Source: Promethearchaeota archaeon
GTDB lineage: Archaea; Asgardarchaeota; Lokiarchaeia; Sigyniarchaeales; SOKP01
Direction: 5' to 3'
Length of the DNA: 27,623 nt
Assembly (NCBI GenBank): GCA_048938005.1
Contig: JBHLMQ010000040.1
Location: 1-27,623, forward strand
Shown: in pieces, positions 350 through 20,806 of the stretch
How positions within the stretch are numbered: the stretch's first letter is position 1
Layout of the letters: each line of letters opens with the position of its first letter
The notes under the pieces: generated by a model
Seen by the model: the letters and a program-made list of their open reading frames with translations, nothing else
Databases searched by the model: none
Told to the model about the DNA's origin: nothing
Program-made: the position numbers and the translations under genes

Positions 350-3300
350 ATGAGGAGACGAATAAAAGCATGTATTTTTTTATTAGTAATTTGCATTCAG
401 TTTGTTTTATTAGGTTGTAGTGTAGGTGGCACCAACTTCTTTATTAATAACAAACCAGAAGTACCTGACATGAAAATGCACCAAAAAGAGGGGGCATCTT
501 ATTCATCTCCTTATTATTTTCCTGTTAATAAATCCACTCCCTTAATGACGGAAGAGCTTTCCGAGGTGGAAACTGATCAGAGTCCTAAGCTGGTTTCTAA
601 TTATTATTATTATTATAATGATTATGCTCTAACACTTAATCTTGATAAATATGTTCTTATTGTTGGTGAAATCCTTACTATTAATTTAGGATTAACTTGT
701 AATTTAACTGCCTCGGCAGGAAAAATAATTTCTGTAGAAGTTTATCAAGGATTTTATCGAGATTATTATTTCTATTACCCAAATTATTATGAGACTGCAA
801 CACCAATTTTTACAATAAATTTAACTACTAATGCGAATGGTCTTGTTTCAATACCTTTTACCATGACTTCTACTGAAGGAATTTATACCGTTTATGCTTA
901 TACTGAGAATTGTCGAGCTTATAAGGAATTTACTATAGGCGAAGTTGGAATTTTTTATAAAGGTCCAAGATACTACAAGCAAAATCAGTTATATACCGCA
1001 GCGGTCCATATTGTTAACCTGACTGATTTTTCAGGTATCCCATTAGCTGGTTTTAATTATTCTGTTTCTTATTATGATTATTCAAGTACTAGCTGGATTT
1101 TTTTAACAACAAATGAAGGTCAAACTGATGATTCAGGTTATGCTATTTTTACTACAGATATTCCTTTAGATATAGATGATTATTATATACTTAGATTAAC
1201 AATACAAACTATTGATGGAAAAGCTGAATATCAGACCTTTTTGTATGAATCCTGGGACTATTATTATTATTGTATGTGGGGAGGGCAACAAAAAACAATC
1301 CAAGAGCGATTTCAGTATGTGGTAACAACTGATAAGACAATTTACAGTCCGGGCGATACTATTTTTTTAAGAGTTTTAGTTTTAGAATATTCATTCATGA
1401 ATGAAACTAAAAAAGCAATGCAAAATACTCCCGTTTCTTTGACCATCTATAATCCTAATGAATTTGCTGTTTTTTGGTCAACTATTACAACTGATGATTA
1501 TGGTATCTTAACCTTTACTTTTCCATTAGATGAAGATTGTGAATTAGGATATTATGGATTTGAATTTAGTCAATCAAATAAAAAATATAGATACAATATT
1601 AAGGTTGAATATTATGTTAAACCAGTTTTTAGGGTAGATATTGATACAAACGGAAAGGAATTCTATCCTACTTACAAAAATTTATTCGAAGGTTTTATTG
1701 AAGCAACATATTACTTTGGTCAGCCGGTGGTGGGAGCATCTGTTGAGCTCACTATCCAAAATTATTGGGGAGAACTCAAATTTAAGTTGGAGGGAATTAC
1801 AAACAGTGAAGGAAGGTTATATTTCTCGATTAATTTACAATATATTCCTGATATAGATTATACTTTTAGCGTACTAACAAATGTAATAGATATTTATGGT
1901 AGGAGTGCATCTATAGAAAAAATATATACTCGCATTGAGCAGTTATTTGCTTATGGTTATTTAACAAATTGGGCACCTAACCCTACTGAAACCTTAGAAT
2001 ATTATTTTTATGTATTTCAATACATTATGTCCGGGGATGAGTATTATTATTGGCATTGGATGTATAATCCATTAGCTAATCTCACAGCTAATATTGAAAT
2101 CTTTGGAATAGTAGGATATCCAATGTATACTTCATTAATTTCTGATAAGAAATTACTTGCAACTTACTCTGAATCTACAAATAAATTTGGAGCAGGTAAA
2201 TTGGAATTTAAATTACCTTTAGGACAAATAATACCTTATGATCTTTTTGAAATTAGGCTTTCAGTTACCCTTAAGGATGGTAGATCTACAACATCATCTT
2301 ACTATTTCCGTTATAAGAAATATAGTTTAGACATTAACATTATCGATTCAAACTTAGATTTAGGTGAGACTCTTGAATTTGAAGTAACCTTTAAAAACGT
2401 TCTGACAGGTTCTCCTTCAACCGGAGAAGGTAGGATTTATATTTATGATGCAAAGTGTCAACTGATAGGTCGAGTTAGTGATATGATTTCTGGGAGCAAA
2501 ACGTATAATTTTTATATTCCAAGTTTTTATCCTGAAGGAAAATATTATATATATTCGTATGTATATTCTCGCTCAAATGAATATTATGGTGGATTTAGTT
2601 ATCACTCTGCGCATGATTTTTTTGTAGTAGGTAGTTTTTATTCAGTATCATTTGTTACTAATTATACAAATACAGGAACTTATTATGACCAAATAGAAGT
2701 TCAAATTAATGATGTTATTGAGATTAATGGCATTTCAAATGTATCATCAAATATTCCACTTTATATCGAAGTATACAAACGTGGTTTGCTTTTTTCAGTC
2801 CCATTAGAGGTAATCGATGATAAATTCTCTTATAACCTCTCTGTTAAAGCAGATTTCGCACCTGATTTTACGATTATAATTTATACTATTTCCGATTTAG
2901 GAAAACTTTATGAAAGTATTCTTGCTGTTCACATCGATTTTTCTTATACCCTTAGTCTTTCAACAGATAAAGAAATTTATGAGCCTGGTGATTTAATAAC
3001 ATTGACTATTACACCATCAGACAATATAACTTCAGTTTTATCACTTTCTTTTATAGACAGTGCTGTACTTGATGTAGAACCAGAAGATGATTCGGAATTG
3101 GCTTATTTTACAATGAATACTTATTCGACTTATATTAGGTCAGGAAGTTCGTGGGGTTCTGGATTTATGTTTGATAGCTATTGGTGGTGCGGTTATGGGA
3201 TCCCCGCAGGTGGTGTTTATTATAGAGAGAATGAAGAACCAGTACCTTTATTAGATGATTTTTATGCGTTTCCTTATGGAGAAAATGGACACTTTAAACG

Positions 3301-6300
3301 TGATACCCCTTCTTTTGATGATTTACTCTCAACTTTAGACACAGAAATACGAAAAAATATTTCAGAATCAGCTAATTGGATGCCAAAATTGATCATTTCG
3401 GAACAAACTAACATTACCTTTAAATTAACCGATAATATAGGTGAATGGACTATTAGAACTGTAGGGAATAGCATGATTGGAGATTTTAATGATCTAGTGT
3501 TATGGGGAGATGTTGAAACCATACAAATTAAATCATTTTTACCGTTTTTCATAGAGTTTGACATACCACAACCAGTAGGTCAAGATGATATCTTAGATGT
3601 AAAAGGGTATATTTACAATTATATAGGGACTGATGTATATGCATTAGTTGCCATCAATGCCCCTGAACTTGCCATATTAAATAAGGATACACAAGAATTA
3701 TTTATTCCAAATGGTTTTATTTCAGAGGTTGAGTTTTCTGTTTATTGTATCGAGCCTTATTTCCAAAACATTACACTCTTGGCAGTTACTGAAGTTTCTG
3801 GAATACAATATTCAGATGCAAAACAAATAACGACTTATATAAAACCAAATGGGATTGAAGTCATAAATAGAACTATAGGATTTTTAAATGCTACTGATGG
3901 GTCTTTGCTCTTAAACTATACTGTGGATCCACTCGCAATTTACCATAAAGAAACATTAGCATTGTATACTGATCTAATGGATATTTCGATTGAAAGCTGG
4001 CAATCATTAATTGGTTATCCTTATGGGTGTATAGAACAAACAATATCTAGAACGCTCCCAACAGCTCTCATATTTAACTATTTAAAACAAACGGGGCAAC
4101 TTACTACTAATCTTGAGCAAGAGTTAACTTCAATGATCTTAGAAGGACTTAATCGGATTTATAATTTTCAACATAGTGATGGTGGTTGGGGCTGGTGGAG
4201 AGATGATACGTCTAAAATCCTGATGACTTCTATTGTTGTATCTGCATTGATCCAAATTGAGGAAGTTGGTTTCCAAATTAATTCAATTACATTAAAAAGA
4301 GGTATTGAATATCTAATTAATCATCAATATCCTAATGGTCTTTGGGATTTTCAAGAATATTCTTCAAACACTTTAGAAGCCACAGCTTTTATTCTTAAGG
4401 CAATAATGAATTTTAATAATAAAACTTCTCAGATGGACACAGCTATTAGTAAAGCTGTTAATGAGTTTAGAAGCTTATGGAATACTGAAGAAATGCAGAG
4501 TGCCTATGCGGCTTCTCTTTTTTATATCGCAACACGTGATAATATTTATGAAAATACCACATTTAATGATATATTAATTCAATTTATCAAAGATAATAAA
4601 AAAATCGAAGAGAATACAATATTTTGGGACAGTGATGTAAATAACATTTGGTACTGGCGAAAGTTAGGAAATATTGTTGAAATTACATCTTATGCTGTAT
4701 GGGCTCTTGCACTTGATGATTATGTAAATAACTATGCTTTAATCAAAAAAGCAGTCCGATATTTATTGAATCAACATAATCGTTGGGGGTGGGGATCAAC
4801 TGCAGATACCGCAGCAGCGATTACTGCTTTGACAGCAATTAAGGGAATTATTCTTACTGGAGGATTCATAGACTTCAATGGAACAGTTTCTGTTATGATT
4901 AATAACCATAAACCTCCTCAATATGTTTTAAATTTCACAGAATCTAACAATAACCCAGATGAAATTCTATTAAATCTGCGTGAATATATAACGGAAAATA
5001 CTAATACAATCAATATCTCCTTGAATGGTTCTGGTCAAATATGCTATATTTTTGAAAGTGTACAGATTTTACGTTCAAATCCAAAAATAGAGATTCCAGC
5101 TATGATAGAAGTTTCGAAAAATGAACAATTCTATGTGGGAGTAAGATTCTCTAAAATTGATGATAGAATGCCAATATTTGATGCTACATCATCATTACTT
5201 CATATTCCTCAAAATTTTCAAGATCCTGAAGCGAACTATACGATTTTTACTCCAATCCTTATTAATGGGAGTGAGATTTTCTTTTCTTTAATTGCACCAA
5301 ATATAGAAGGTGATTACATTTTAGAGGGTGTCTCATTTTTAGGATTTATTCAATTTAATGATACATCAAATAATTCTTCAAGTTATCAAATTTTTCAGCG
5401 CACAGTCGGACCTATAATTATTAGAGTAGGAACCCAACCACCATCATCATATCCTTTAATTGAAACAATTCATAGTTCAGCAGCGGAGGATTCTGAATTG
5501 TTAACTCTTACAAAGCAAGTTTCCAAACAAGAATTCCTTGTTCCTGGAGAAATTATAACTATTACGATAAAAATCTCAAATAATGGAGACCCACGCCAAT
5601 TTTACGTTCTTGAAGATAAACAACCTACAGGAACAATATTTTTATCCGATTCTGTTAAAATATTAGGAGATTATAATAATTCAGAAATTACGCATGGATT
5701 ATTTTTGTCAGGAATTCATTTCTTCTTTCCTATGTTAGCGATTGGAATTACTGAAATTACTTATCAACTTCAAGTTGATAATATAAAAAATTCTTACTCA
5801 GGAGAATGTAAACTTTGGGGTATGTACGATGATTTTTGTATCTCTGCTTACTCAATAGTATTAGAGAATATTCCCCGAAAACATAGTCCTGATAACTCAA
5901 TTTATCAAGATTTATTATTACCATATATTTTAAATATTAGTTTCAGCCAAAAGTTTAAAGAACCTAAAATACAGCTTCAAATTAATCTCCAAGCAACAGA
6001 TAATAATGGTATTAATAGAATTCGTGTAGTCTTTTCACAAAATTCTGGATGGAGGGTTCAAACTCTGTATTCAATGAAAAATCAAGAAGACTTTTTAATA
6101 ATTATTACAGACATTAAAAATATTAATTCTATAGTGAAAATGTATCTTGAAGTTTCTGACATCTACGGAAATATTGCCACTACAAATTTAATCCCCGTAA
6201 AAATCTTTGCTTATGAGATTATTCCTTATCTCATCATTGGAGTGATTTTGGGGCTTTCAATTGGATTAGCAAGCATATCTTCAATACTTTATAAAAAGTA

Positions 6301-6406
6301 TGAAGAAAAGAAACAACGTGAGCAAGATCGGATAATCAATAAAACAAAACATGAAATAAGTAAAGTTTCATTTTTAGATGAATCTGAAGAAGAAATGAAA
6401 AAGTGA
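350..6406 (+). CDS. Alpha-2-macroglobulin family thioester-containing protein, secreted and membrane-anchored
   Basis: MG-domain motifs TDKTIYSPGD and TDKEIYEPGD; IRKNISESANWMP (the IRxxFxETxxW-type motif after the bait region); thioester motif YPYGCIEQT (Cys codon 4028-4030); QHSDGGWGWW and WGSTADTAAAITAL in the thioester domain; N-terminal signal ending LLGC; C-terminal TM helix followed by a charged tail. Confidence 0.92.
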   Translation: MRRRIKACIFLLVICIQFVLLGCSVGGTNFFINNKPEVPDMKMHQKEGASYSSPYYFPVNKSTPLMTEELSEVETDQSPKLVSNYYYYYNDYALTLNLDKYVLIVGEILTINLGLTCNLTASAGKIISVEVYQGFYRDYYFYYPNYYETATPIFTINLTTNANGLVSIPFTMTSTEGIYTVYAYTENCRAYKEFTIGEVGIFYKGPRYYKQNQLYTAAVHIVNLTDFSGIPLAGFNYSVSYYDYSSTSWIFLTTNEGQTDDSGYAIFTTDIPLDIDDYYILRLTIQTIDGKAEYQTFLYESWDYYYYCMWGGQQKTIQERFQYVVTTDKTIYSPGDTIFLRVLVLEYSFMNETKKAMQNTPVSLTIYNPNEFAVFWSTITTDDYGILTFTFPLDEDCELGYYGFEFSQSNKKYRYNIKVEYYVKPVFRVDIDTNGKEFYPTYKNLFEGFIEATYYFGQPVVGASVELTIQNYWGELKFKLEGITNSEGRLYFSINLQYIPDIDYTFSVLTNVIDIYGRSASIEKIYTRIEQLFAYGYLTNWAPNPTETLEYYFYVFQYIMSGDEYYYWHWMYNPLANLTANIEIFGIVGYPMYTSLISDKKLLATYSESTNKFGAGKLEFKLPLGQIIPYDLFEIRLSVTLKDGRSTTSSYYFRYKKYSLDINIIDSNLDLGETLEFEVTFKNVLTGSPSTGEGRIYIYDAKCQLIGRVSDMISGSKTYNFYIPSFYPEGKYYIYSYVYSRSNEYYGGFSYHSAHDFFVVGSFYSVSFVTNYTNTGTYYDQIEVQINDVIEINGISNVSSNIPLYIEVYKRGLLFSVPLEVIDDKFSYNLSVKADFAPDFTIIIYTISDLGKLYESILAVHIDFSYTLSLSTDKEIYEPGDLITLTITPSDNITSVLSLSFIDSAVLDVEPEDDSELAYFTMNTYSTYIRSGSSWGSGFMFDSYWWCGYGIPAGGVYYRENEEPVPLLDDFYAFPYGENGHFKRDTPSFDDLLSTLDTEIRKNISESANWMPKLIISEQTNITFKLTDNIGEWTIRTVGNSMIGDFNDLVLWGDVETIQIKSFLPFFIEFDIPQPVGQDDILDVKGYIYNYIGTDVYALVAINAPELAILNKDTQELFIPNGFISEVEFSVYCIEPYFQNITLLAVTEVSGIQYSDAKQITTYIKPNGIEVINRTIGFLNATDGSLLLNYTVDPLAIYHKETLALYTDLMDISIESWQSLIGYPYGCIEQTISRTLPTALIFNYLKQTGQLTTNLEQELTSMILEGLNRIYNFQHSDGGWGWWRDDTSKILMTSIVVSALIQIEEVGFQINSITLKRGIEYLINHQYPNGLWDFQEYSSNTLEATAFILKAIMNFNNKTSQMDTAISKAVNEFRSLWNTEEMQSAYAASLFYIATRDNIYENTTFNDILIQFIKDNKKIEENTIFWDSDVNNIWYWRKLGNIVEITSYAVWALALDDYVNNYALIKKAVRYLLNQHNRWGWGSTADTAAAITALTAIKGIILTGGFIDFNGTVSVMINNHKPPQYVLNFTESNNNPDEILLNLREYITENTNTINISLNGSGQICYIFESVQILRSNPKIEIPAMIEVSKNEQFYVGVRFSKIDDRMPIFDATSSLLHIPQNFQDPEANYTIFTPILINGSEIFFSLIAPNIEGDYILEGVSFLGFIQFNDTSNNSSSYQIFQRTVGPIIIRVGTQPPSSYPLIETIHSSAAEDSELLTLTKQVSKQEFLVPGEIITITIKISNNGDPRQFYVLEDKQPTGTIFLSDSVKILGDYNNSEITHGLFLSGIHFFFPMLAIGITEITYQLQVDNIKNSYSGECKLWGMYDDFCISAYSIVLENIPRKHSPDNSIYQDLLLPYILNISFSQKFKEPKIQLQINLQATDNNGINRIRVVFSQNSGWRVQTLYSMKNQEDFLIIITDIKNINSIVKMYLEVSDIYGNIATTNLIPVKIFAYEIIPYLIIGVILGLSIGLASISSILYKKYEEKKQREQDRIINKTKHEISKVSFLDESEEEMKK

Positions 6407-7040: not shown

Positions 7041-7418
7041 ATGATTGAAATGATTTTCGTGACATTTGAACAAGTTATGTGGTTTTTGGTATTTTACCTT
7101 ATAGTTCTGTTAATAATGGCAATTTTCTTGAAATTGGCTTTAGGTTTTTTTAGTAAAGCGAGAAACACAAATTTCGGTCGTGTTTTTTTAACAGCGTTCT
7201 TAATAACTGTAACATTTGCTTTAGTTTTTCTGTTTTTAGGAGGATGGCTAGCATGGTTGTTATCATTAGTTTTAACATGGGTAATTATTAGCGTTAGCCA
7301 TAATGTCGGATTTTTAAGTGCAATTGTTATAACTGTTTTAGCCTTCCTATTATACGTTCTCGTTGTTATCTTACTTAGTGCCTTATTACATGTAACAATC
7401 GATATATTACCATTCTAA
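7041..7418 (+). CDS. Hypothetical membrane protein (about 4 TM helices)
   Basis: 125-aa very hydrophobic ORF; exact start uncertain. Confidence 0.8.
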   Translation: MIEMIFVTFEQVMWFLVFYLIVLLIMAIFLKLALGFFSKARNTNFGRVFLTAFLITVTFALVFLFLGGWLAWLLSLVLTWVIISVSHNVGFLSAIVITVLAFLLYVLVVILLSALLHVTIDILPF

Positions 7419-7531
7419 TTTTTTTTATCTCTTATTTTTCTTGTTAGATATTGATTAGATTATTCCGACGTAAAAAATTTCTAACCTCTTTTCCTCGACA
7501 AAAAAGTTATAGTAATGCCTTAATAGTTGCA

Positions 7532-7539
7532 TTTAAATA
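7532..7539 (+). promoter_or_regulatory. Putative archaeal TATA box of the structured RNA
   Basis: TTTAAATA centred about 26 nt upstream of G7562, the first base of the first hairpin; this is canonical archaeal spacing. Confidence 0.5.
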
Positions 7540-7561
7540 TGAATTTATCAAAGTATAAATT

Positions 7562-7920
7562 GTTCATACCTAACGGTGTGAACGTCGAGAAGAGGTATTG
7601 TTACCTCAATGCATTGGTACCGCAAGGTAATCATTAGCGATATGAAGAGAAATTGTGTGTAAAAGCACAATTTGAACTAAAGTATAAATCGTGAGGTTTA
7701 TATTTGATGTTCAATCTGGCTGATTCGAAAGAATTAGTGAGGTTATCAAACGATAACACCATTCAAAGAATAAGAAATTATTCTCAGTATGGTATGTCTT
7801 TTCACTACGCAAACTGATTCAATGTTTTGAAAAATTTTTCCACGTAAGTGAAAAAAGACAATACCGTTTGCATTTGAAAGCCTTTAGGTAATCATTTGCA
7901 GCTTCTCGTCCCTTCTTTTT
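7562..7920 (+). ncRNA. Large structured non-coding RNA of unknown class
   Basis: About 10 helices, five closed by GNRA loops (GCAA 7622-25, GTGA 7691-94, GAAA 7727-30, GAAA 7774-77, GTAA 7844-47); G-U wobbles that work on the + strand; long-range pairings 7586-7592/7902-7908 and 7637-7650/7797-7810; no long ORF; upstream TATA box and downstream T-tract. Confidence 0.8.
7911..7920 (+). terminator. Pyrimidine/oligo-T archaeal terminator candidate
   Basis: CCTTCTTTTT immediately after the closing helix of the structured RNA. Confidence 0.45.
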
Positions 7921-7939
7921 AATTAATCCTGTTATGATC

Positions 7940-8107
7940 TTAAAATACAATATTTTTACTTTTCCATAATTTTACGAATCTTTTGAATTCATCAACAGAA
8001 ATTCCTAAATTATTATTAATTTTCTTTTTATTCTTTAATTCTTTCTTTTGAGCAGATTTAGATTTTAAACTCAATTGCCAATCATAATAAGATTTTTTTC
8101 TTGTCAC
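7940..8107 (-). CDS. Small basic Lys-rich protein (55 aa)
   Basis: GTG start: MTRKKSYYDWQLSLKSKSAQKKELKNKKKINNNLGISVDEFKRFVKLWKSKNIVF*; 14 Lys + 2 Arg versus 4 acidic residues; purine-rich GAGAGAGA upstream. Confidence 0.5.
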   Translation of the reverse strand: MTRKKSYYDWQLSLKSKSAQKKELKNKKKINNNLGISVDEFKRFVKLWKSKNIVF

Positions 8108-8206
8108 AAGAATAAGATTTAATCTCTCTCAAATAAGTTAAAAGAGTCCGACAAATTACAGAAAAATTACTATTACTGAATAAAAAAGCTGAAGATAGAG
8201 ATTTAT

Positions 8207-16915: not shown

Positions 16916-17383
16916 ATGGAGCTCTATAAATTTTTACCTAAGACTAACTGTAAAAAGTGTGGGAAACCTACTTGTATGGCTTTTGCCTTAGATTTATTAA
17001 AAGGAAAGGTAAAAATTGATGATTGTACTCCGTTATTAGAGGCTAAATATAAGAAGAATTATGATACATTAAAAGATTTAATTGGTGCTGAAGAGGGAAA
17101 AGAAAAAGAGCTTAAAATAGATGTGGACAATGAATTATGTGATGGATGTGGGATCTGTGTAAGTGTGTGCCCAGTTAATGCAAGATATTGTCCTCCAACA
17201 TTAAGTGGTAAAGCTCCCGATTATCCACCTGAAAAGCATCAATTATTTCAAGTTAAGGGTGGAAAATGTGAATTATTAGCGATAGAACATTGTCGAAGGA
17301 TTGAAGCAGAAGGAAGAGAAAGAGAATGTCGCGTCTGTGAGACTTATTGTCCACGAGAAGCTATTAAAATTGATTATGTGTGA
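16916..17383 (+). CDS. Fe-S protein, FwdH-like (LPKTNC FeS domain plus 2x4Fe-4S ferredoxin)
   Basis: LPKTNCKKCGKPTCMAFA...C N-domain, then CDGCGICVSVCP and CRVCETYCP; first gene of the fwd cluster. Confidence 0.75.
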   Translation: MELYKFLPKTNCKKCGKPTCMAFALDLLKGKVKIDDCTPLLEAKYKKNYDTLKDLIGAEEGKEKELKIDVDNELCDGCGICVSVCPVNARYCPPTLSGKAPDYPPEKHQLFQVKGGKCELLAIEHCRRIEAEGRERECRVCETYCPREAIKIDYV

Positions 17384-17427
17384 TTAATGATTAGTTTTTT
17401 AATTTGAATTAATAAGTGTTATGAATT

Positions 17428-18732
17428 ATGGTTAGTGACCGGGTTACATGTTCAGGTTGTTCACTTCTATGTGATGATATTATCATTAGAAGTGATGGAT
17501 TGTATATTGATGAGGTTATAGGGGCATGCCTGAAAGGAAAAGAAAGATTTGACCAGGTAACAGCAAAAAACAGAATCTTAAGCTCTATTATTCGAAAAAA
17601 TGGTGAATCAAAGAAGGTATCGTTTGATAAAGCATTACAAGAAGCCATTAATATCATTAAAAATTCCACAAAACCCCTCTTATATGGTTTTTCAACAGTA
17701 AGTTGCGAAGCTCAATTGAAAGGACTCGAGCTTGCAAGAATGATTAATGGTTTTATAGATTCCAATTCTACAATTTGTCAAGGGAAAGTTTTGAGTACCT
17801 CAAGGGAAACAGGTATAACGTTAACAACTATTGCAGAAATTATTAATAAAGCGGATCTATTAATGTTATGGGGCGCAAATGCAGCAGAATCAATACCTCG
17901 TCTTTTGAATAAAATTCTTTTCTCACGTGGTAAGTTCCGAATGACTGGGAGAGAAATAAAAACACTAATTGTTATAGATCCGGTCAAAACGGCGTCTTTT
18001 GGAGTAATGGGGGTACGAGATGTTGCACTTCAAATCGAACCAGGAAAAGATATTGATTTAATTCGTGTATTAAAAGAAGAATGTTGCGTTGCAGATAGTA
18101 TTCCAAGAACCGGTGTTGCAGGTATAGATAAAGATGATTTAAAAAGATTATTACTTCATTTAACTGGTGCTGAAAATGGAGTAATTTTTATTGGCCAAGG
18201 GATTCTAAGACCTCAAAATGGTGCAAATGTTATTAAGGAATTACTTGAATTAGTGCAATTAATAAATGTAAAACAACAAAAGGGGCGTATTTCTCTTGTC
18301 ATGTTATGCGGTCATTATAATATGGCAGGTTTTGACCATGTTGCTTTATCAATATATGGAAAAAACCATAGTTTACAATTTTCAAATAATCAATTAATCG
18401 AAACATCAGAAACAATAGTATCAAAAATTTATAATGAAGATTTTGATTGTTCTATAATCGTAGGAACTGATCCAATCTCTCATTTCCCTATTCAATTGAG
18501 TAGAAAATTAATAGGAAAACCTTTAATCCTTATAGATAATAAGCAATCTGCAACATCACACATAGCAGATGTAGTAATACCATCCACTTTAACTGGAATT
18601 GAAAGTGAAGGACTAGCTTATCGTATAGATCACGTCCCAATTGAATTAAAAAAAATCATAAAAGCACCAGCGAATATTATTACTGATGAGGAAATTTTAA
18701 TGAAATTAATTGAAGGATTAAATGGGGCGTGA
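17428..18732 (+). CDS. fwdB: Formylmethanofuran dehydrogenase subunit B, divergent
   Basis: CSGCSLLCDDI...C 4Fe-4S motif, KPLLYG, GHYN, GIESEGLAYRIDHVPI and TDEEIL. Confidence 0.9.
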   Translation: MVSDRVTCSGCSLLCDDIIIRSDGLYIDEVIGACLKGKERFDQVTAKNRILSSIIRKNGESKKVSFDKALQEAINIIKNSTKPLLYGFSTVSCEAQLKGLELARMINGFIDSNSTICQGKVLSTSRETGITLTTIAEIINKADLLMLWGANAAESIPRLLNKILFSRGKFRMTGREIKTLIVIDPVKTASFGVMGVRDVALQIEPGKDIDLIRVLKEECCVADSIPRTGVAGIDKDDLKRLLLHLTGAENGVIFIGQGILRPQNGANVIKELLELVQLINVKQQKGRISLVMLCGHYNMAGFDHVALSIYGKNHSLQFSNNQLIETSETIVSKIYNEDFDCSIIVGTDPISHFPIQLSRKLIGKPLILIDNKQSATSHIADVVIPSTLTGIESEGLAYRIDHVPIELKKIIKAPANIITDEEILMKLIEGLNGA

Positions 18733-18736
18733 GACT

Positions 18737-19108
18737 ATGGAGATGCTATTAAATACAGTAAGAATGATAGATTTTGATCAAGTAAGGGAGCATACTTTCG
18801 GAGATAATAATTCTCTTAAAGAAAAATTAGCAATTGGATTAATTAATCCAGAAGATTTTAATAAACTCAATCTTAAATCAAGCCTTAACCTAAAATTAAA
18901 AAATGATTTTGGTAGTGTTATTATAAAGCCACAGCAAGATAAAAATGTTCCATTAGGTACTGTAATTATGCCTGTTTCAATTTGGGCTAACCAAATTACT
19001 GGAATCGAAAGTAATGAACTAATTTACAAGAACATAATAGTAAACGTAGAAGCTACTAGCGAGTCTGTACTCGATTTTAAAGATTTATTAAATATCATTA
19101 GAGAATAA
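18737..19108 (+). CDS. fwdD: Formylmethanofuran dehydrogenase subunit D-like molybdopterin dinucleotide-binding domain
   Basis: INPEDFNKL, FGSV, GTVIMPVSIWANQI and YKNIIVNVE; ATG 18737 preferred over 18722, which overlaps fwdB. Confidence 0.85.
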   Translation: MEMLLNTVRMIDFDQVREHTFGDNNSLKEKLAIGLINPEDFNKLNLKSSLNLKLKNDFGSVIIKPQQDKNVPLGTVIMPVSIWANQITGIESNELIYKNIIVNVEATSESVLDFKDLLNIIRE

Positions 19109-19129
19109 AAAATATTGGAGTCTATCAAA

Positions 19130-20806
19130 ATGGATAAACTTATTATCAAAAACGGTTTAGTATTCGATCCTATCAACAATATTGAAGGTGAAATAAAAGA
19201 TATTTTAATTGAATCTGGTAGAATAATAGAAAAATTTACTAACGAAAAAAATGTTAAAGAAATCAACGCAAAAGGAAAAACTGTTATTCCTTCAGCTATA
19301 GATATACATACGCATGTAGCATCTCAGCAGGTTAATTGGGCACGATTATTAGGTACAAGTAATAGTAAATTTAAAGAGAATTGGCATGGACTAACTTTAC
19401 AGAACATTGCTAGAGATTATATTTCTAACGGTTATACTTTTATTCTAGAGGCAAATGTTTTTCCATCTTTAGCGAAACAAACTATCTTTAACTTTAAACA
19501 ATTGCCAGTACTAGATAAAGCGATGTTATTAAATATCAGTAATCTTTGGCCTTTGGAACTAGAATTTCAGAGAGGAAAAATTGATGAGATGGCAATATTT
19601 CTATCAGACTTATTATCAAAAACTTATGGATTTGGATTCAAAATTTATAATCCTTTTGAAAACGAATCGTGGAATTTAAGAGTATTAAGAGATAATATTT
19701 CTCACACAGGAAGATTATATAACTTCTCTGCTTTAGATGTATATGAAAATATTGTAAAATGCGTCGAAATTCTTGGATTACCTCACTCAACTCATGCACA
19801 TATTGAAGGTTATGAAAAGCAAATAGGAAAAGAGAATCTTATAAGTGTTTTAGAAAAGATAAAATCATTAAATTTAGAAGCCAGTCAAAAAACTGATTCA
19901 TATGTAAAAAGAGATCAGATTTTTCATATTGCTCATGCAAATTCTTACAACTATGATAATGATAATGAAAACCTAATCAATTTTTTAACTGAAAATCAAA
20001 ATTTTGACATTGATCTCGCTTTTATAGGGTTCAATAAGATAAATCCTCTAATAACTTCAGATAGACGACTAATAAATTCTATGTTAACAAACAACATTCT
20101 TGAAAATCCTCATAAATTAATATGTTCTGCTGTAGAATTTGAAGGTGATTCATTTGTATCTATGAGAAGTTTTGAAAAAAGCAATTATAAGGATTGTATT
20201 TTGTGGGCTAATGCTCTCGATTTAGCTTTAAATATTAAGAATAAGCTTCAAGTTAGTTTAACTCTGAATTTCCCGAATTATGCGAATGTCACTGATATTC
20301 CTGAGATTGTAACTTGGTTGATAAGCAAAGAAGCTCGAGATAATTTTATGAAAGATATGAATAATGATTTTATAAAAAAAAATTCTTTTAAAGATAATGA
20401 AAAAGTTTTAGGATTCTCTGAATTCGTTACTATAACAAGAGTAAGCCCCGCAAAATCTCTCGGATTAGGGAGTATTAAAGGAAATCTAGAGGAGGGGGCT
20501 GATGGAGACATTAATATATTAGATCTTGATATTGATGAAATTGATATCTCGAAGAATCATCAAAATTTAAAGGATGCTTTATCAAATATAGAATACGTTA
20601 TTAAATCAGGTAATATTGTTAAAAAGGAAGAAGATATCGATTTAAATCATCCCGGTTCGATTTTTTGGTCTAGGGGTGAAATTGAAGTCGAAGGAAAAGA
20701 GTTTATATTAGCAAAAAAGAAAGAATTTTATCAAAAATATTCATCAATGTTTTACAATTCTTACAAAATATTTATTGATGAGAGATTTTTAAGAAAAATT
20801 GAATAA
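19130..20806 (+). CDS. fwdA: Formylmethanofuran dehydrogenase subunit A (amidohydrolase fold), divergent
   Basis: LIIKNGLVFDPINNIEGE, IDIHTHVA, KIYNP, LGLPHSTHAH and ITRVSPAKSLGL...GADGDI; ATG 19130 with upstream GGAG preferred over TTG 19115. Confidence 0.9.
   Translation: MDKLIIKNGLVFDPINNIEGEIKDILIESGRIIEKFTNEKNVKEINAKGKTVIPSAIDIHTHVASQQVNWARLLGTSNSKFKENWHGLTLQNIARDYISNGYTFILEANVFPSLAKQTIFNFKQLPVLDKAMLLNISNLWPLELEFQRGKIDEMAIFLSDLLSKTYGFGFKIYNPFENESWNLRVLRDNISHTGRLYNFSALDVYENIVKCVEILGLPHSTHAHIEGYEKQIGKENLISVLEKIKSLNLEASQKTDSYVKRDQIFHIAHANSYNYDNDNENLINFLTENQNFDIDLAFIGFNKINPLITSDRRLINSMLTNNILENPHKLICSAVEFEGDSFVSMRSFEKSNYKDCILWANALDLALNIKNKLQVSLTLNFPNYANVTDIPEIVTWLISKEARDNFMKDMNNDFIKKNSFKDNEKVLGFSEFVTITRVSPAKSLGLGSIKGNLEEGADGDINILDLDIDEIDISKNHQNLKDALSNIEYVIKSGNIVKKEEDIDLNHPGSIFWSRGEIEVEGKEFILAKKKEFYQKYSSMFYNSYKIFIDERFLRKIE

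Follow-up and report, generated by a model that had tools for sequence, protein, structure and literature searches.

Large structured RNAs in which many helices are conserved are, to our knowledge, rare, and almost every such class that we know of so far is a ribozyme, the core of an RNP or a self-assembling particle. We know of no recently described 'ornate' class from Archaea, and our full-text literature search found neither an 'ornate' large RNA from Asgard archaea nor any description of the RNA reported here. Among the nearest described systems is the OLE RNA of the Bacillota, a large, multi-helix and lineage-restricted ncRNA whose gene is paired with oapA. OLE works in an RNP, which one report describes as membrane-associated (PMC10898510). 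The bacterial ROOL, GOLLD and raiA-motif RNAs are likewise large, ornate, tetraloop-rich and patchily distributed, with functions that were initially obscure. ROOL and GOLLD self-assemble into multimeric cages, and the raiA motif is presented as a structured ncRNA in a further report (PMC11706538). Two archaeal RNAs are of comparable length, namely the RNase P RNA (RF00373; ~300-350 nt), which has a terminal closing helix, multi-way junctions, GNRA loops and its own promoter, and the SRP (7S) RNA (RF01857), an RNP RNA that serves as a comparison case for abundant stable RNA. The Csr/Rsm RNAs, finally, vary in their numbers of stem-loops and occur as paralogues and in tandem genes.

We analyzed a stretch of 27,623 nucleotides (the window) from an Asgard archaeon, an assignment with which the eukaryote-like actin of the host (442 bits) agrees. 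Positions 7562 to ~7915 of the + strand contain an ncRNA gene of ~355 nt that is strongly folded. In descriptive terms that do not imply homology, it is a large ornate structured ncRNA: it is longer than 200 nt, intergenic and non-coding, it has many covarying helices, and it has its own promoter and terminator. It shares the general build of the systems mentioned above, but differs from each of them. Unlike OLE, to which it has no sequence or structure match, it has an archaeal host and promoter and belongs to a family of ~240-745 nt with an exchangeable head. Unlike ROOL, GOLLD and raiA, it has no Rfam match and no match in viral contigs, and within the genomes searched it is confined to a single archaeal family. 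It differs from RNase P RNA in lacking both an RF00373 match and the CR-I motif and in being dispensable in close relatives, and from SRP RNA in being branched instead of rod-like and in lacking an RF01857 match. With the Csr/Rsm sponges it shares variable hairpin modules, paralogues and tandem genes, but it is archaeal, has conserved long-range helices and junctions and shows no repeated single-stranded binding motif. The initial annotation had proposed a new class of large archaeal ncRNA, a proposal supported by the lack of an Rfam match, the strong covariation, the RNA-library contigs over the element and the Asgard host. We are highly confident that this is a genuine, new and expressed structured-RNA family.

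The comparison with known RNAs was made with the 4227 covariance models of Rfam 15. No match was obtained in the window at the gathering score, only four junk matches of 16-25 bits, none of them over the core of the element, appeared at E<=10 on positions 7400-8100, and six variant loci gave no match at E<=1. There was thus no match to the models of OLE, ROOL, GOLLD, raiA, HEARO, group I and II introns or small self-cleaving ribozymes, all of which are presumably represented in Rfam 15. The genome has its RNase P RNA elsewhere (G000:C62:17914-18237, RF00373, 119.4 bits against a cut-off of 84), and likewise an SRP RNA (G000:C15:1951-2229, RF01857, full model length, 63 bits, E 1.3e-13, cut-off 96.5 bits). 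The CR-I motif of RNase P (GAGGAAAGUCC, P4 helix), searched with at most two mismatches, matched three times in the window, which is at chance level, and not within 7556-7925; ARAGORN found no tRNA or tmRNA gene in the whole window. A group II intron, retron or other RT-linked RNA was rejected because RVT_1 had no match in the 95%-complete genome (control genomes were positive) and no reverse transcriptase is encoded among the neighbours. We also rejected a Y RNA (no TROVE (Ro60) match in the genome, with positive controls in 2 genomes) and an omega RNA, tracrRNA or bridge RNA (no adjoining IscB, TnpB, Cas or recombinase gene). A search for Vault repeats, as a link to vault RNA, was silent in this genome and in the control genomes alike.

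The minimum free energy (MFE) of the element on the + strand is -121.7 kcal/mol, compared to a mean of -72.3 (sd 5.4) for 100 shuffled sequences (z -9.19), none of which folded as well. On the minus strand the MFE amounts to only -89.1 kcal/mol. Moreover, many pairs alternate between A-U and G-U or between C-G and U-G (for example pairs 131-148, 135-144 and 136-143), and on the minus strand such alternations would read as A-C mismatches. From both observations we take the + strand as the RNA strand, as had been suggested from the G-U pairs. To define a comparative consensus, 20 type-A homologues with 73-92% identity were aligned (alignment A1); covariance model R1 later detected 29 type-A genes, of which these are 20. 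The consensus comprises 101 pairs, 32 of which show compensatory changes. In this consensus, 96.0% of 2005 cells are paired, as opposed to 34.0-44.4% when the partners are slid by 1-3 columns, and the 32 pairs with double changes compare with 5-16 in the slid controls. For four of five measures the observed value was reached by none of 500 shuffles, and for the fifth by 35 of 500. A second alignment of 16 hand-picked type-B and short sequences (A4), none of which is in A1 and which do not include every known B and short copy (L065 and L191, for example, are absent), gave 64 pairs, 27 of them compensatory, and recovered P1, P3, P12 and P13 again. A further alignment (A3) covered 37 of the 38 distinct 3' domains together with L082; L060, which has no P12, was dropped. 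Inside the element no + strand ORF of at least 40 aa is present, and the homologues in A1 differ by indels of 1-2 nt. The GC content of the element is ~31-33%, barely above the genomic background, which is unusual for a classical stable RNA; the RNase P RNA of the same genome looks far more GC-rich by reading.

The molecule begins with a hairpin, H0 (GTTCATACC-TAAC-GGTGTGAAC, 7562-7583; 8 pairs, 2 compensatory, 97% of cells paired), and the transcript is predicted to start at or near 7562. Next to it, the closing helix P1 pairs G.CGAGAAG (7584-7592) with CTTCTCG.C (7902-7910) through 8 pairs, with 98.8% of cells paired. Closure by 7586-7592/7902-7908 had been noticed at the outset; covariation supports this helix and extends it by G7584-C7910. 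The outer G-C pair of P1 is changed to A-U in 2 sequences and a C-G to U-A in the member from genus g23; the sequence of the inner GAGAAG/CUUCU(C/U) never varies. P2 (7594-7602 with 7857-7865) has 9 pairs, is 96.7% paired and shows 2 compensatory pairs, with G-C changed to A-U at two positions. P3 (7607-7616 with 7820-7829) encloses the head and has 10 pairs, 4 of them compensatory. Both long-range helices, P2 and P3, were missing from the list of the initial annotation. That list instead held a helix GCAAAC/GTTTGC (7809-7814/7866-7871), which is complementary in this copy but absent from the consensus: in the homologues, changes in its 5' strand are uncompensated and its 3' strand is partly deleted in 11 of 20. 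This helix is therefore not conserved, and P2 and P3 take its place. Two side hairpins, P12 (TTTTTCCAC-GTAA-GTGAAAAA, 7835-7855) and P13 (7868-7899), branch off the closing helices P1-P3, forming two stacked three-way junctions, which we refer to as the stalk. P12 shows compensatory changes, two of its pairs being changed from U-A to C-G in 9 and 5 of the 20 sequences. P13 adjoins the 3' strand of P1 and has 5 consensus pairs with 2 compensatory (6 and 3 in the B/short set), and its GCAAUGA...UCAUUGC-type sequence is conserved across types. A complementarity between the loops of H0 and P13 (pair I6) is not kept in the homologues L004 and L005 of A1 and was taken as chance.

Within P3 lies a small hairpin, P3a (TACC-GCAA-GGTA, 7618-7629), which is present in the fold. 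By reading of A1, its loop is of the GNRA type in 16 of 20 homologues, whereas 3 of the remaining 4 have a CAACC-ATC-GGTTG-type hairpin instead; RNAalifold left P3a uncalled because of an alignment shift. A stem of three helices then carries a five-way junction: P4 (7630-7632 with 7816-7818), P5 (7637-7639 with 7808-7810) and P6 (7643-7650 with 7797-7804) together comprise 13 pairs, 4 of them compensatory. The earlier claim of a helix 7637-7650/7797-7810 around a five-arm junction is thus supported by covariation. The head itself (7651-7793) consists of the arms P7 (7651-7672), P8 (7673-7713), P9 (7719-7738, GNRA loop), P10 (7742-7757, AAAC loop) and P11 (7758-7793, GNRA loop); in helices 8-14, 15 of 45 pairs are compensatory. 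All eight local hairpins that had been folded by hand are present at the positions given for them, and they recur in the MFE fold and in the 20-homologue consensus. The five GNRA loops are likewise all found in this copy, but by reading of A1 only those of P3a, P9 and P11 are of the GNRA type in most homologues.

Upstream of the gene we observed a family-specific promoter composed of two CGAC/A-run boxes, a TTAATAG element and a TATA box. The TATA box (TTTAAATA, 7532-7539) is located ~25 nt before 7562, which is the usual archaeal distance between TATA box and start. Its presence had been noted before, and it is conserved in the 20 aligned homologues (two of which read TTTATATA) and in the other types. 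The TTAATAG element (7520-7526), just upstream of it, is conserved in the alignment and in most members, and the exact combination TTAATAG-N5-TTTAAATA is unique to this gene in the genome. The idea that the promoter is shared with other genes was rejected, since TTAATAG-TATA with one mismatch occurs 18 times compared to 25 for the reversed control. The proximal box (CGACAAAAAA, 7496-7505, about -66 to -57), which also combines CGAC with an A-run, recurs at its position in most family members and probably functions in the promoter. The distal box (CCGACGTAAAAA, 7465-7476, about -97 to -86) is found at the same position in most of the upstream regions compared, covering types A, B, C, short and composite in three genera, and is a likely binding site; its pattern occurs twice in the 3.7-Mb genome, the second time (CCGACNTAAAAA) inside an apparent coding frame. 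At the 3' end, CC and a T-tract (CCTTCTTTTT, 7911-7920) form the presumed terminator, and sequence conservation ends here. The T-tract at 7913-7920, which had been noted before, follows the 3' helix and is conserved, and U-tracts are described as a termination signal in Archaea (PMC8716108).

The RNA in the window, designated type A, is one form of a modular family with sizes of ~240-745 nt. All members have the promoter, H0, the closing helices P1-P3, the two side hairpins and the 3' domain in common, while the inner head inside P3 can be exchanged, combined or triplicated. The head of some relatives consists of four hairpins, others combine both heads in one molecule or string three units together, and minimal forms of ~240-280 nt also occur. 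In the composite form (~665 nt, z -10.3), which belongs to another genus, a type-A head module stands beside a different head. The three-unit form (z -8.15) contains three 3'-domain matches ~245 nt apart; its units are separated by H0-like hairpins without internal promoters, and in its MFE fold a single outer P1 closes the whole. H0 is duplicated in type B, and the loops across types are GNRA, UUCG and UAAC/AAAC tetraloops. The unity of the family is illustrated by model R3, which was built from type-B and short sequences only and nonetheless found the whole length of the RNA in the window (7558-7920, 103.7 bits, E 9e-25), along with the other type-A genes. Some genomes contain two types or tandem copies (G025), and one locus (L083) contains a truncated 5' fragment.

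In a sample of 151 genomes of the class, the family was present in 54 of 126 genomes of the same taxonomic family (three genera: g1 33/49, g20 20/40 and g23 1/6) and in none of 24 from six other families; model R2 placed it in 37 of 54 genomes of the genus. The modular build, variable size and patchy distribution of the family speak for an accessory role and against a universal housekeeping function. The genes around it are ordinary chromosomal ones, encoding an A2M-like giant protein, a membrane protein, a Zn-ribbon protein, a ferredoxin and MFS transporters. The type-A position is syntenic in 17 genomes, in which the RNA gene lies ~140 nt downstream of a small membrane-protein gene, orf125, on the same strand. 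The type-B position, which follows a PolB gene, is syntenic in 8 genomes, and the type-A and type-B loci have no gene in common. The orf125 protein (125 aa) is very hydrophobic by reading and has no Pfam family, the atlas giving only unnamed archaeal clusters. This arrangement recalls the ole-oapA pairing of OLE, but orf125 is also kept in genomes that lack the RNA, and types B, C and short do not have it as a neighbour. In a hand tally of 54 genomes, 27 had both the RNA and orf125, 10 only the RNA, 5 only orf125 and 12 neither; nothing was drawn from these counts because related genomes are not independent. A lysine-rich ORF of 55 aa downstream is likewise retained where the RNA is absent. 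In three close relatives with 82-84% identical orf125 proteins (two genomes 100% and one 97% complete), the same two flanking genes lie ~75-95 nt apart and the cassette, that is promoter plus RNA (~450 bp), is absent.

Four of six RNA runs were compared with the element (X17 and X18 were left out). In all four libraries, which stem from four studies, we found contigs matching 7561-7937, 82 in total, with 80-99+% likeness (four contigs with at least 99%). The summed word depths reached 26,459 for X15, 1,979 for X19, 487 for X20 and 95 for X16; as assembled contigs, these matches carry no information on ends, strand or level, and DNA carry-over is formally possible. One contig match starts at 7562, and contigs reach 7900-7914. 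Several contigs begin at 7579-7587, but instead of a processed 5' end this may be the effect of a branching assembly graph at the conserved P1. None of the four libraries covered the flanks (7300-7560 and 7938-8150), from which nothing was concluded, as the flanks of relatives may be too unlike to match. One contig joins the 3' end (7914) to 7584 via 30 other letters, which suggests a unit-to-unit arrangement in an environmental relative.

As to the function of this RNA, we prefer the view that the invariant stalk would be the working part, providing a specific platform to which a protein partner docks or through which the RNA associates with itself, with the head of tetraloop-capped hairpins as a rigid, expandable body; the whole would then act as an accessory RNP scaffold or a self-organising architectural RNA, like the bacterial 'ornate large' RNAs. 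We find this more plausible than a role as guide, cis-regulator or known ribozyme. The scaffold or architectural mechanism by itself is tentative, in our estimate falling a little short of an even chance, and the complete picture of a stand-alone, stable ~355-nt ncRNA, type A of a new modular Asgard family, that combines stalk docking with such a mechanism, could be right or wrong with equal probability. Neither a conserved neighbour gene across types nor a candidate protein partner was found, which speaks against a scaffold, and by eye we saw neither a K-turn nor another known motif for protein binding. The invariant P1 and the tandem or concatenated units could equally mean processing or catalysis, and the patchy presence and changing copy number fit a selfish or conflict element equally well. 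A rather unlikely reading is an Asgard-specific functional RNA machine, which would be a new large ribozyme or an RNA architecture that assembles itself without protein. Its core for catalysis or oligomerisation would be formed by H0, P1 (GAGAAG/CUUCUC), P12 and P13, with the exchangeable heads as modules that tune it. The stalk and its junctions could also be the core of a ribozyme that cuts three-unit transcripts at the H0-like spacers, or another substrate. Large ribozymes typically have this size, such multi-helix junctions and a similar density of tetraloops, which fits this idea, as do a P1 that is invariant in sequence despite being a helix, the three-unit transcripts with hairpin spacers and without internal promoters, and the contig linking 7914 to 7584. 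Nevertheless, we consider it improbable: no Rfam ribozyme family was matched, the majority of genes have a single unit and need no unit processing, the three-unit MFE fold is closed as one molecule, and types freely exchange the head, in which much of a catalytic core would have to reside. A decoy that titrates an RNA-binding protein, comparable to CsrB/RsmZ, or the polymerase as 6S RNA does, its capacity being set by the number of hairpins or units, could account for the modular gain of hairpins and units, the paralogues and tandem copies, and the large summed depths in the RNA libraries. It is even less probable, given that common stable tetraloops cap the hairpins in place of a single recurring binding motif, and that a string of binding sites has no need of covarying long-range helices and junctions.

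Another possibility is a selfish or conflict cassette that spreads, duplicates or is quickly lost because it serves a mobile element, a virus, defence or counter-defence instead of core physiology. Such a cassette would explain why ~450 bp are cleanly present or absent at one locus between close relatives, why presence is patchy within genera, why types A and B occupy different loci and can both occur in one genome, and why tandem copies, a truncated fragment and internal duplications of units exist. However, the borders of the cassette show no terminal inverted or direct repeats and no target duplications, no integrase, transposase or reverse transcriptase gene is located near the locus (nor RVT_1 anywhere in the genome), and 2.9 million viral contigs, scanned with two motifs, contained no match. 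The synteny of types A and B fits vertical descent with losses, and we regard a selfish origin as quite unlikely. Lastly, the element could be a very divergent universal RNA (RNase P/MRP-like, SRP or an rRNA fragment), an mRNA leader, a 3' UTR or a small-protein gene. Its size and closing helix do resemble those of RNase P and MRP RNAs, and its position 3' of orf125 on the same strand would suit a UTR. Against this, the RNase P and SRP RNA genes lie elsewhere, neither a relevant Rfam match at E<=10 nor CR-I was found, the promoter is its own and conserved, the RNA and its neighbour gene each occur without the other, and the + strand has no ORF while substitutions are compensatory. These readings are largely refuted and hardly deserve credence.

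The family is readily testable, as nature provides minimal, expanded, composite and triplicated forms, an invariant stalk and knock-outs in sister species, and as the RNA seems to be abundant in RNA libraries from sediment, wetland, soil and mangrove. The family also matters for annotation: in Asgard metatranscriptomes, its reads would otherwise pass for intergenic noise. With our covariance models, three genera of a single family can be marked. In the sister family, R2 gave matches with E 0.05 and 0.092 (2 of 14 genomes at E<=0.1, none of 14 at E<=0.01), which were treated as noise, and one of these marginal matches lies inside a ferredoxin-like coding region.

The window RNA, a non-coding RNA of ~355 nt at 7562-~7915 on the + strand, folds with a minimum free energy of −121.7 kcal/mol. 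One hundred dinucleotide-preserving shuffles gave a mean of −72.3 (sd 5.4), which corresponds to a z-score of −9.19, and none of them (0/100) was as stable, as the initial annotation had anticipated. For the − strand the values are −89.1 kcal/mol and z −5.25. The RNA contains no + strand ORF of at least 40 aa, and it is present once in the source genome (3.72 Mb, 95% complete). Its GC content is only ~31-33%, yet the fold reaches a z-score of about −9; by eye, the RNase P RNA encoded in the same AT-rich genome has a far higher GC content. All hairpins listed in the initial annotation were found on reading positions 7556-7925. The stalk comprises, on the + strand, the hairpin H0 (7562-7583), P1 (7584-7592/7902-7910; a G, a U.U mismatch and then CGAGAAG/CUUCUCG), P2 (7594-7602/7857-7865) and P3 (7607-7616/7820-7829). 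Two side hairpins, P12 (7835-7855) between P3 and P2 and P13 (7868-7899) between P2 and P1, turn the lower part of the molecule into two stacked three-way junctions. The head, which is the exchangeable part inside P3, contains the hairpin P3a (7618-7629), P4, P5 and P6 (7630-7650/7797-7818), and a five-way junction with P7 (7651-7672), P8 (7673-7713), P9 (7719-7738), P10 (7742-7757) and P11 (7758-7793). A tail of CC and a T-tract (7911-7920) forms the 3' end. A 14-nt direct repeat (13/14 identical) is shared by the 3' sides of P3a (7625-7638) and P13 (7886-7899), which hints that the RNA may have grown by internal duplication, part of the head being derived from the 3' domain.

BLAST of 61 genomes recovered all or nearly all of the window RNA in 19 further genomes of the source genus, at 73-92% identity. 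Together with its flanks, conservation extends from ~100 nt upstream of 7562 to just past CTTCTCGTCCCTTCTTT. The resulting type-A alignment (20 sequences, 376 columns, mean identity 82%) has an RNAalifold consensus of 101 pairs, and in 32 of these double-sided changes preserve pairing, so that the expected covariation among homologues was indeed observed. Of the long-range helices proposed beforehand, P1 and the P5/P6 helix are present in this consensus, while P2 and P3 had been overlooked. The proposed helix GCAAAC/GTTTGC (7809-7814/7866-7871) had to be abandoned because its 5' strand varies without compensation and its 3' strand is partly deleted in 11 of the 20 sequences. Standard pairs fill 96.0% of the 2005 cells, versus 34.0-44.4% in slid controls (3' partners displaced by 1-3 columns), and the 32 double-change pairs compare with 5-16 in these controls, a comparison biased toward the consensus because the fold came from the same alignment. 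None of 500 column shuffles matched the alignment in the percentage paired, the double-change pairs, the double-change cells or the covariation score; on a fifth measure, further pair types, 35/500 reached its value. As the slid control favours a structure derived from the same sequences, we also analyzed a second, non-overlapping set of 16 type-B and short sequences (see below). Its 64 consensus pairs, 27 of them compensatory, again include P1, P3, P12 and P13. The many A-U/G-U and C-G/U-G alternations among homologues place the RNA on the + strand, in line with the orientation assigned earlier.

An extended upstream architecture is common to all types and genera of the family, with local variation. 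On the + strand of the window it consists of a distal box (C)CGAC-N-TAAAAA (7465-7476), a proximal box CGACAAAAA (7496-7505), a TAATAA-C-rich stretch between the proximal box and TTAATAG (7520-7526), and a TATA box TTTAAATA (7532-7539), with H0 ~25 nt downstream. The distal box pattern has just two occurrences in the source genome, the one upstream of the window RNA and one inside an apparent coding frame, and the exact TTAATAG-N5-TATA combination is confined to the window RNA gene. The upstream boxes therefore belong to the cassette, and we infer a candidate dedicated factor that would bind them. A further + strand motif resembling the CGAC boxes, GTCCGACAAATT, is located at 8143-8155, between a 55-aa ORF and a Zn-ribbon gene, and is retained in a relative without the RNA.

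The window RNA represents type A of a modular family. Searched with a covariance model built on the type-A core, 29/54 genomes of the source genus have one copy each. Type B was first seen in two genomes negative for this model, where BLAST found just the promoter and the 5' end. This type (~310 nt) has the promoter, H0, P1, P2, P3, P12, P13 and tail in common with type A, but its H0 is duplicated and its head consists of four hairpins. It is present in 8 genomes, in one as a tandem duplicate (G025:C76; two genes 512 nt apart, each with its own promoter) and in another alongside type A. A second model, built from 38 sequences of the 3' domain common to the types, raises the count to 37/54 genomes of the genus and also finds members in two more genera of the same family. 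Among the members in these two genera are short forms of ~240-280 nt (fold z −8.0). A composite form of ~665 nt unites, within one P3, a B-type head with the five-way-junction head of type A (z −10.3), and forms of ~735-745 nt consist of three concatenated units with H0-like hairpins between them and a single outer P1 (z −8.15), the first unit existing as a single-unit version in another genome. A model made from the 16 B/short sequences matches the window RNA over its entire length (7558-7920; 103.7 bits, E 9e-25), and the other type-A genes are recovered too. All types therefore belong to one family, with the stalk as the common bond. One gene copy (locus L083 on G069:C123, ~1490-1560 of the locus, − strand) is reduced to H0, P1 and P2 plus the 5' strand of P3, lacks a consensus TATA box and continues into unrelated sequence; it is probably a decayed fragment. 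In another genome, a weak second match to the 3' domain (G013:C21:18983-19085) and the main copy are 2.7 kb apart.

Among 151 genomes sampled across the class, the B/short model detected the family in 55, namely the source genome and 54 of 126 others of the same taxonomic family (33/49 in the source genus, 20/40 and 1/6 in the genera g20 and g23, and 0/31 in nine other genera). It found none in 24 genomes of six other families, and the 3'-domain model agrees (50/126 and 0/24). In the sister family, scanned in full with the latter model, 0/14 genomes matched at E≤0.01, closed genomes of 4.4 and 6.0 Mb included. Absence here means not found in the genomes searched, by sampling and model-limited searches. 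The 3' motif, searched for as an exact match in 185,579 prokaryote species (one genome per species), was found at 14 loci, every one of them in a record labelled as an Asgard MAG (Promethearchaeota/Promethearchaeia, Hermodarchaeota or Hodarchaeota). This agrees with the Asgard host assumed previously, as does the best of four actin-family matches in the source genome (442 bits), which we read as an actin of the eukaryote type known from Asgard archaea. A 5'-motif scan of metagenome contigs gave 26 loci; 16 also have the 3' domain, at spacings that fit short, type-A or three-unit forms. Two motif scans of viral contigs found no locus.

The window gave no match at gathering score with cmscan against Rfam 15 (4227 families), as had been predicted. 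At E≤10, region 7400-8100 gave four weak matches (16-25 bits versus cut-offs of 50-70) that left the core of the RNA uncovered, and six variant loci of relatives had none at E≤1. The initial annotation had also noted that the signatures of RNase P RNA and of tmRNA/tRNA ends are absent; indeed, the RNase P CR-I motif is missing from the window RNA even at two mismatches, and ARAGORN finds neither tRNA nor tmRNA in the window. The source genome has its archaeal RNase P RNA at G000:C62:17914-18237 (119.4 bits, cut-off 84) and its SRP RNA at G000:C15:1951-2229 (full model length, 63 bits, E 1.3e-13, gathering score 96.5). The latter, scoring below its cut-off, would escape standard annotation. Largely excluded are the readings as a known RNA in divergent form, as a leader and as a small-protein gene. 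As no Rfam family matches and full-text searches of the literature outside subscription journals and supplements turned up no account of such a large structured ncRNA in Asgard archaea, we rate the family as a new RNA class.

Of 20 public runs containing part of the stretch, six are RNA libraries, and we examined four from four studies (wetland, soil, mangrove, sediment). In all four, 7561-7937 is covered by contigs of 80 to more than 99% likeness. The libraries contributed 51, 3, 23 and 5 contigs (4/82 at ≥99% likeness), with summed word depths, in the same order, of up to 26,459, 95, 1,979 and 487; such assembled contigs attest presence in RNA libraries, ends, strand and level not being readable from them. 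In some contigs 116-146 nt of the head are missing, as other head types would lead one to expect. In one contig of run X19, the 3' end (7914) is joined via 30 unrelated letters to the start of P1 (7584), which could reflect a tandem, concatenated or permuted arrangement carried by an environmental relative.

Type A is flanked in 17 genomes by orf125 (7041-7418), a gene for a small hydrophobic protein, and by a 55-aa ORF in convergent orientation. The same two genes are only ~75-95 nt apart in three close relatives (orf125 82-84% identical; listed completeness 100% for two and 97% for one), where the promoter-plus-RNA cassette of ~450 nt is cleanly missing. No inverted or direct repeats were found at the cassette borders. 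Type B lies downstream of a family-B DNA polymerase gene, and no gene is common to type-A and type-B loci. The lysine-rich 55-aa ORF (7940-8107, − strand) belongs to no Pfam family, is conserved in 8 genomes and persists where the cassette is missing.

We read the family as a putative accessory architectural RNA, either an RNP scaffold or a self-organising RNA. This is suggested by the invariant stalk, with a P1 helix frozen in sequence, and by heads that can be exchanged, combined and multiplied and whose hairpins end in stable tetraloops (GNRA, UUCG and UAAC/AAAC, the last of which fold like GNRA). The dedicated promoter, the large RNA-library depths and the dispensability of the cassette point in the same direction. 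In this reading, the stalk would provide a specific site for docking or association, and the head would be a rigid, expandable body. Such an RNA would be akin to the bacterial OLE, ROOL, GOLLD and raiA RNAs in kind, not in descent. The RNA may instead be a ribozyme, perhaps tied to processing of the units, or a protein sponge, and the cassette may be a selfish or conflict-related one.

The other genes of the window are ordinary, encoding an A2M-like giant protein, a Zn-ribbon protein, a ferredoxin, MFS transporters, Fwd-like proteins and a histidine kinase. The + strand ORF at 350-6406 (2018 aa) has alpha-2-macroglobulin domains (TED, 1e-33; MG2, bait region, A2M and MG4) and, judged by these domain matches, encodes an Asgard A2M-like protein of giant size. 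At 16916-20806 (+ strand), genes for a 4Fe-4S protein, a molybdopterin oxidoreductase (434 aa), a molydopterin-binding protein (128 aa, with an 11-nt overlap) and an amidohydrolase (563 aa) follow in a row that presumably resembles formylmethanofuran dehydrogenase subunits (Fwd B, D and A).
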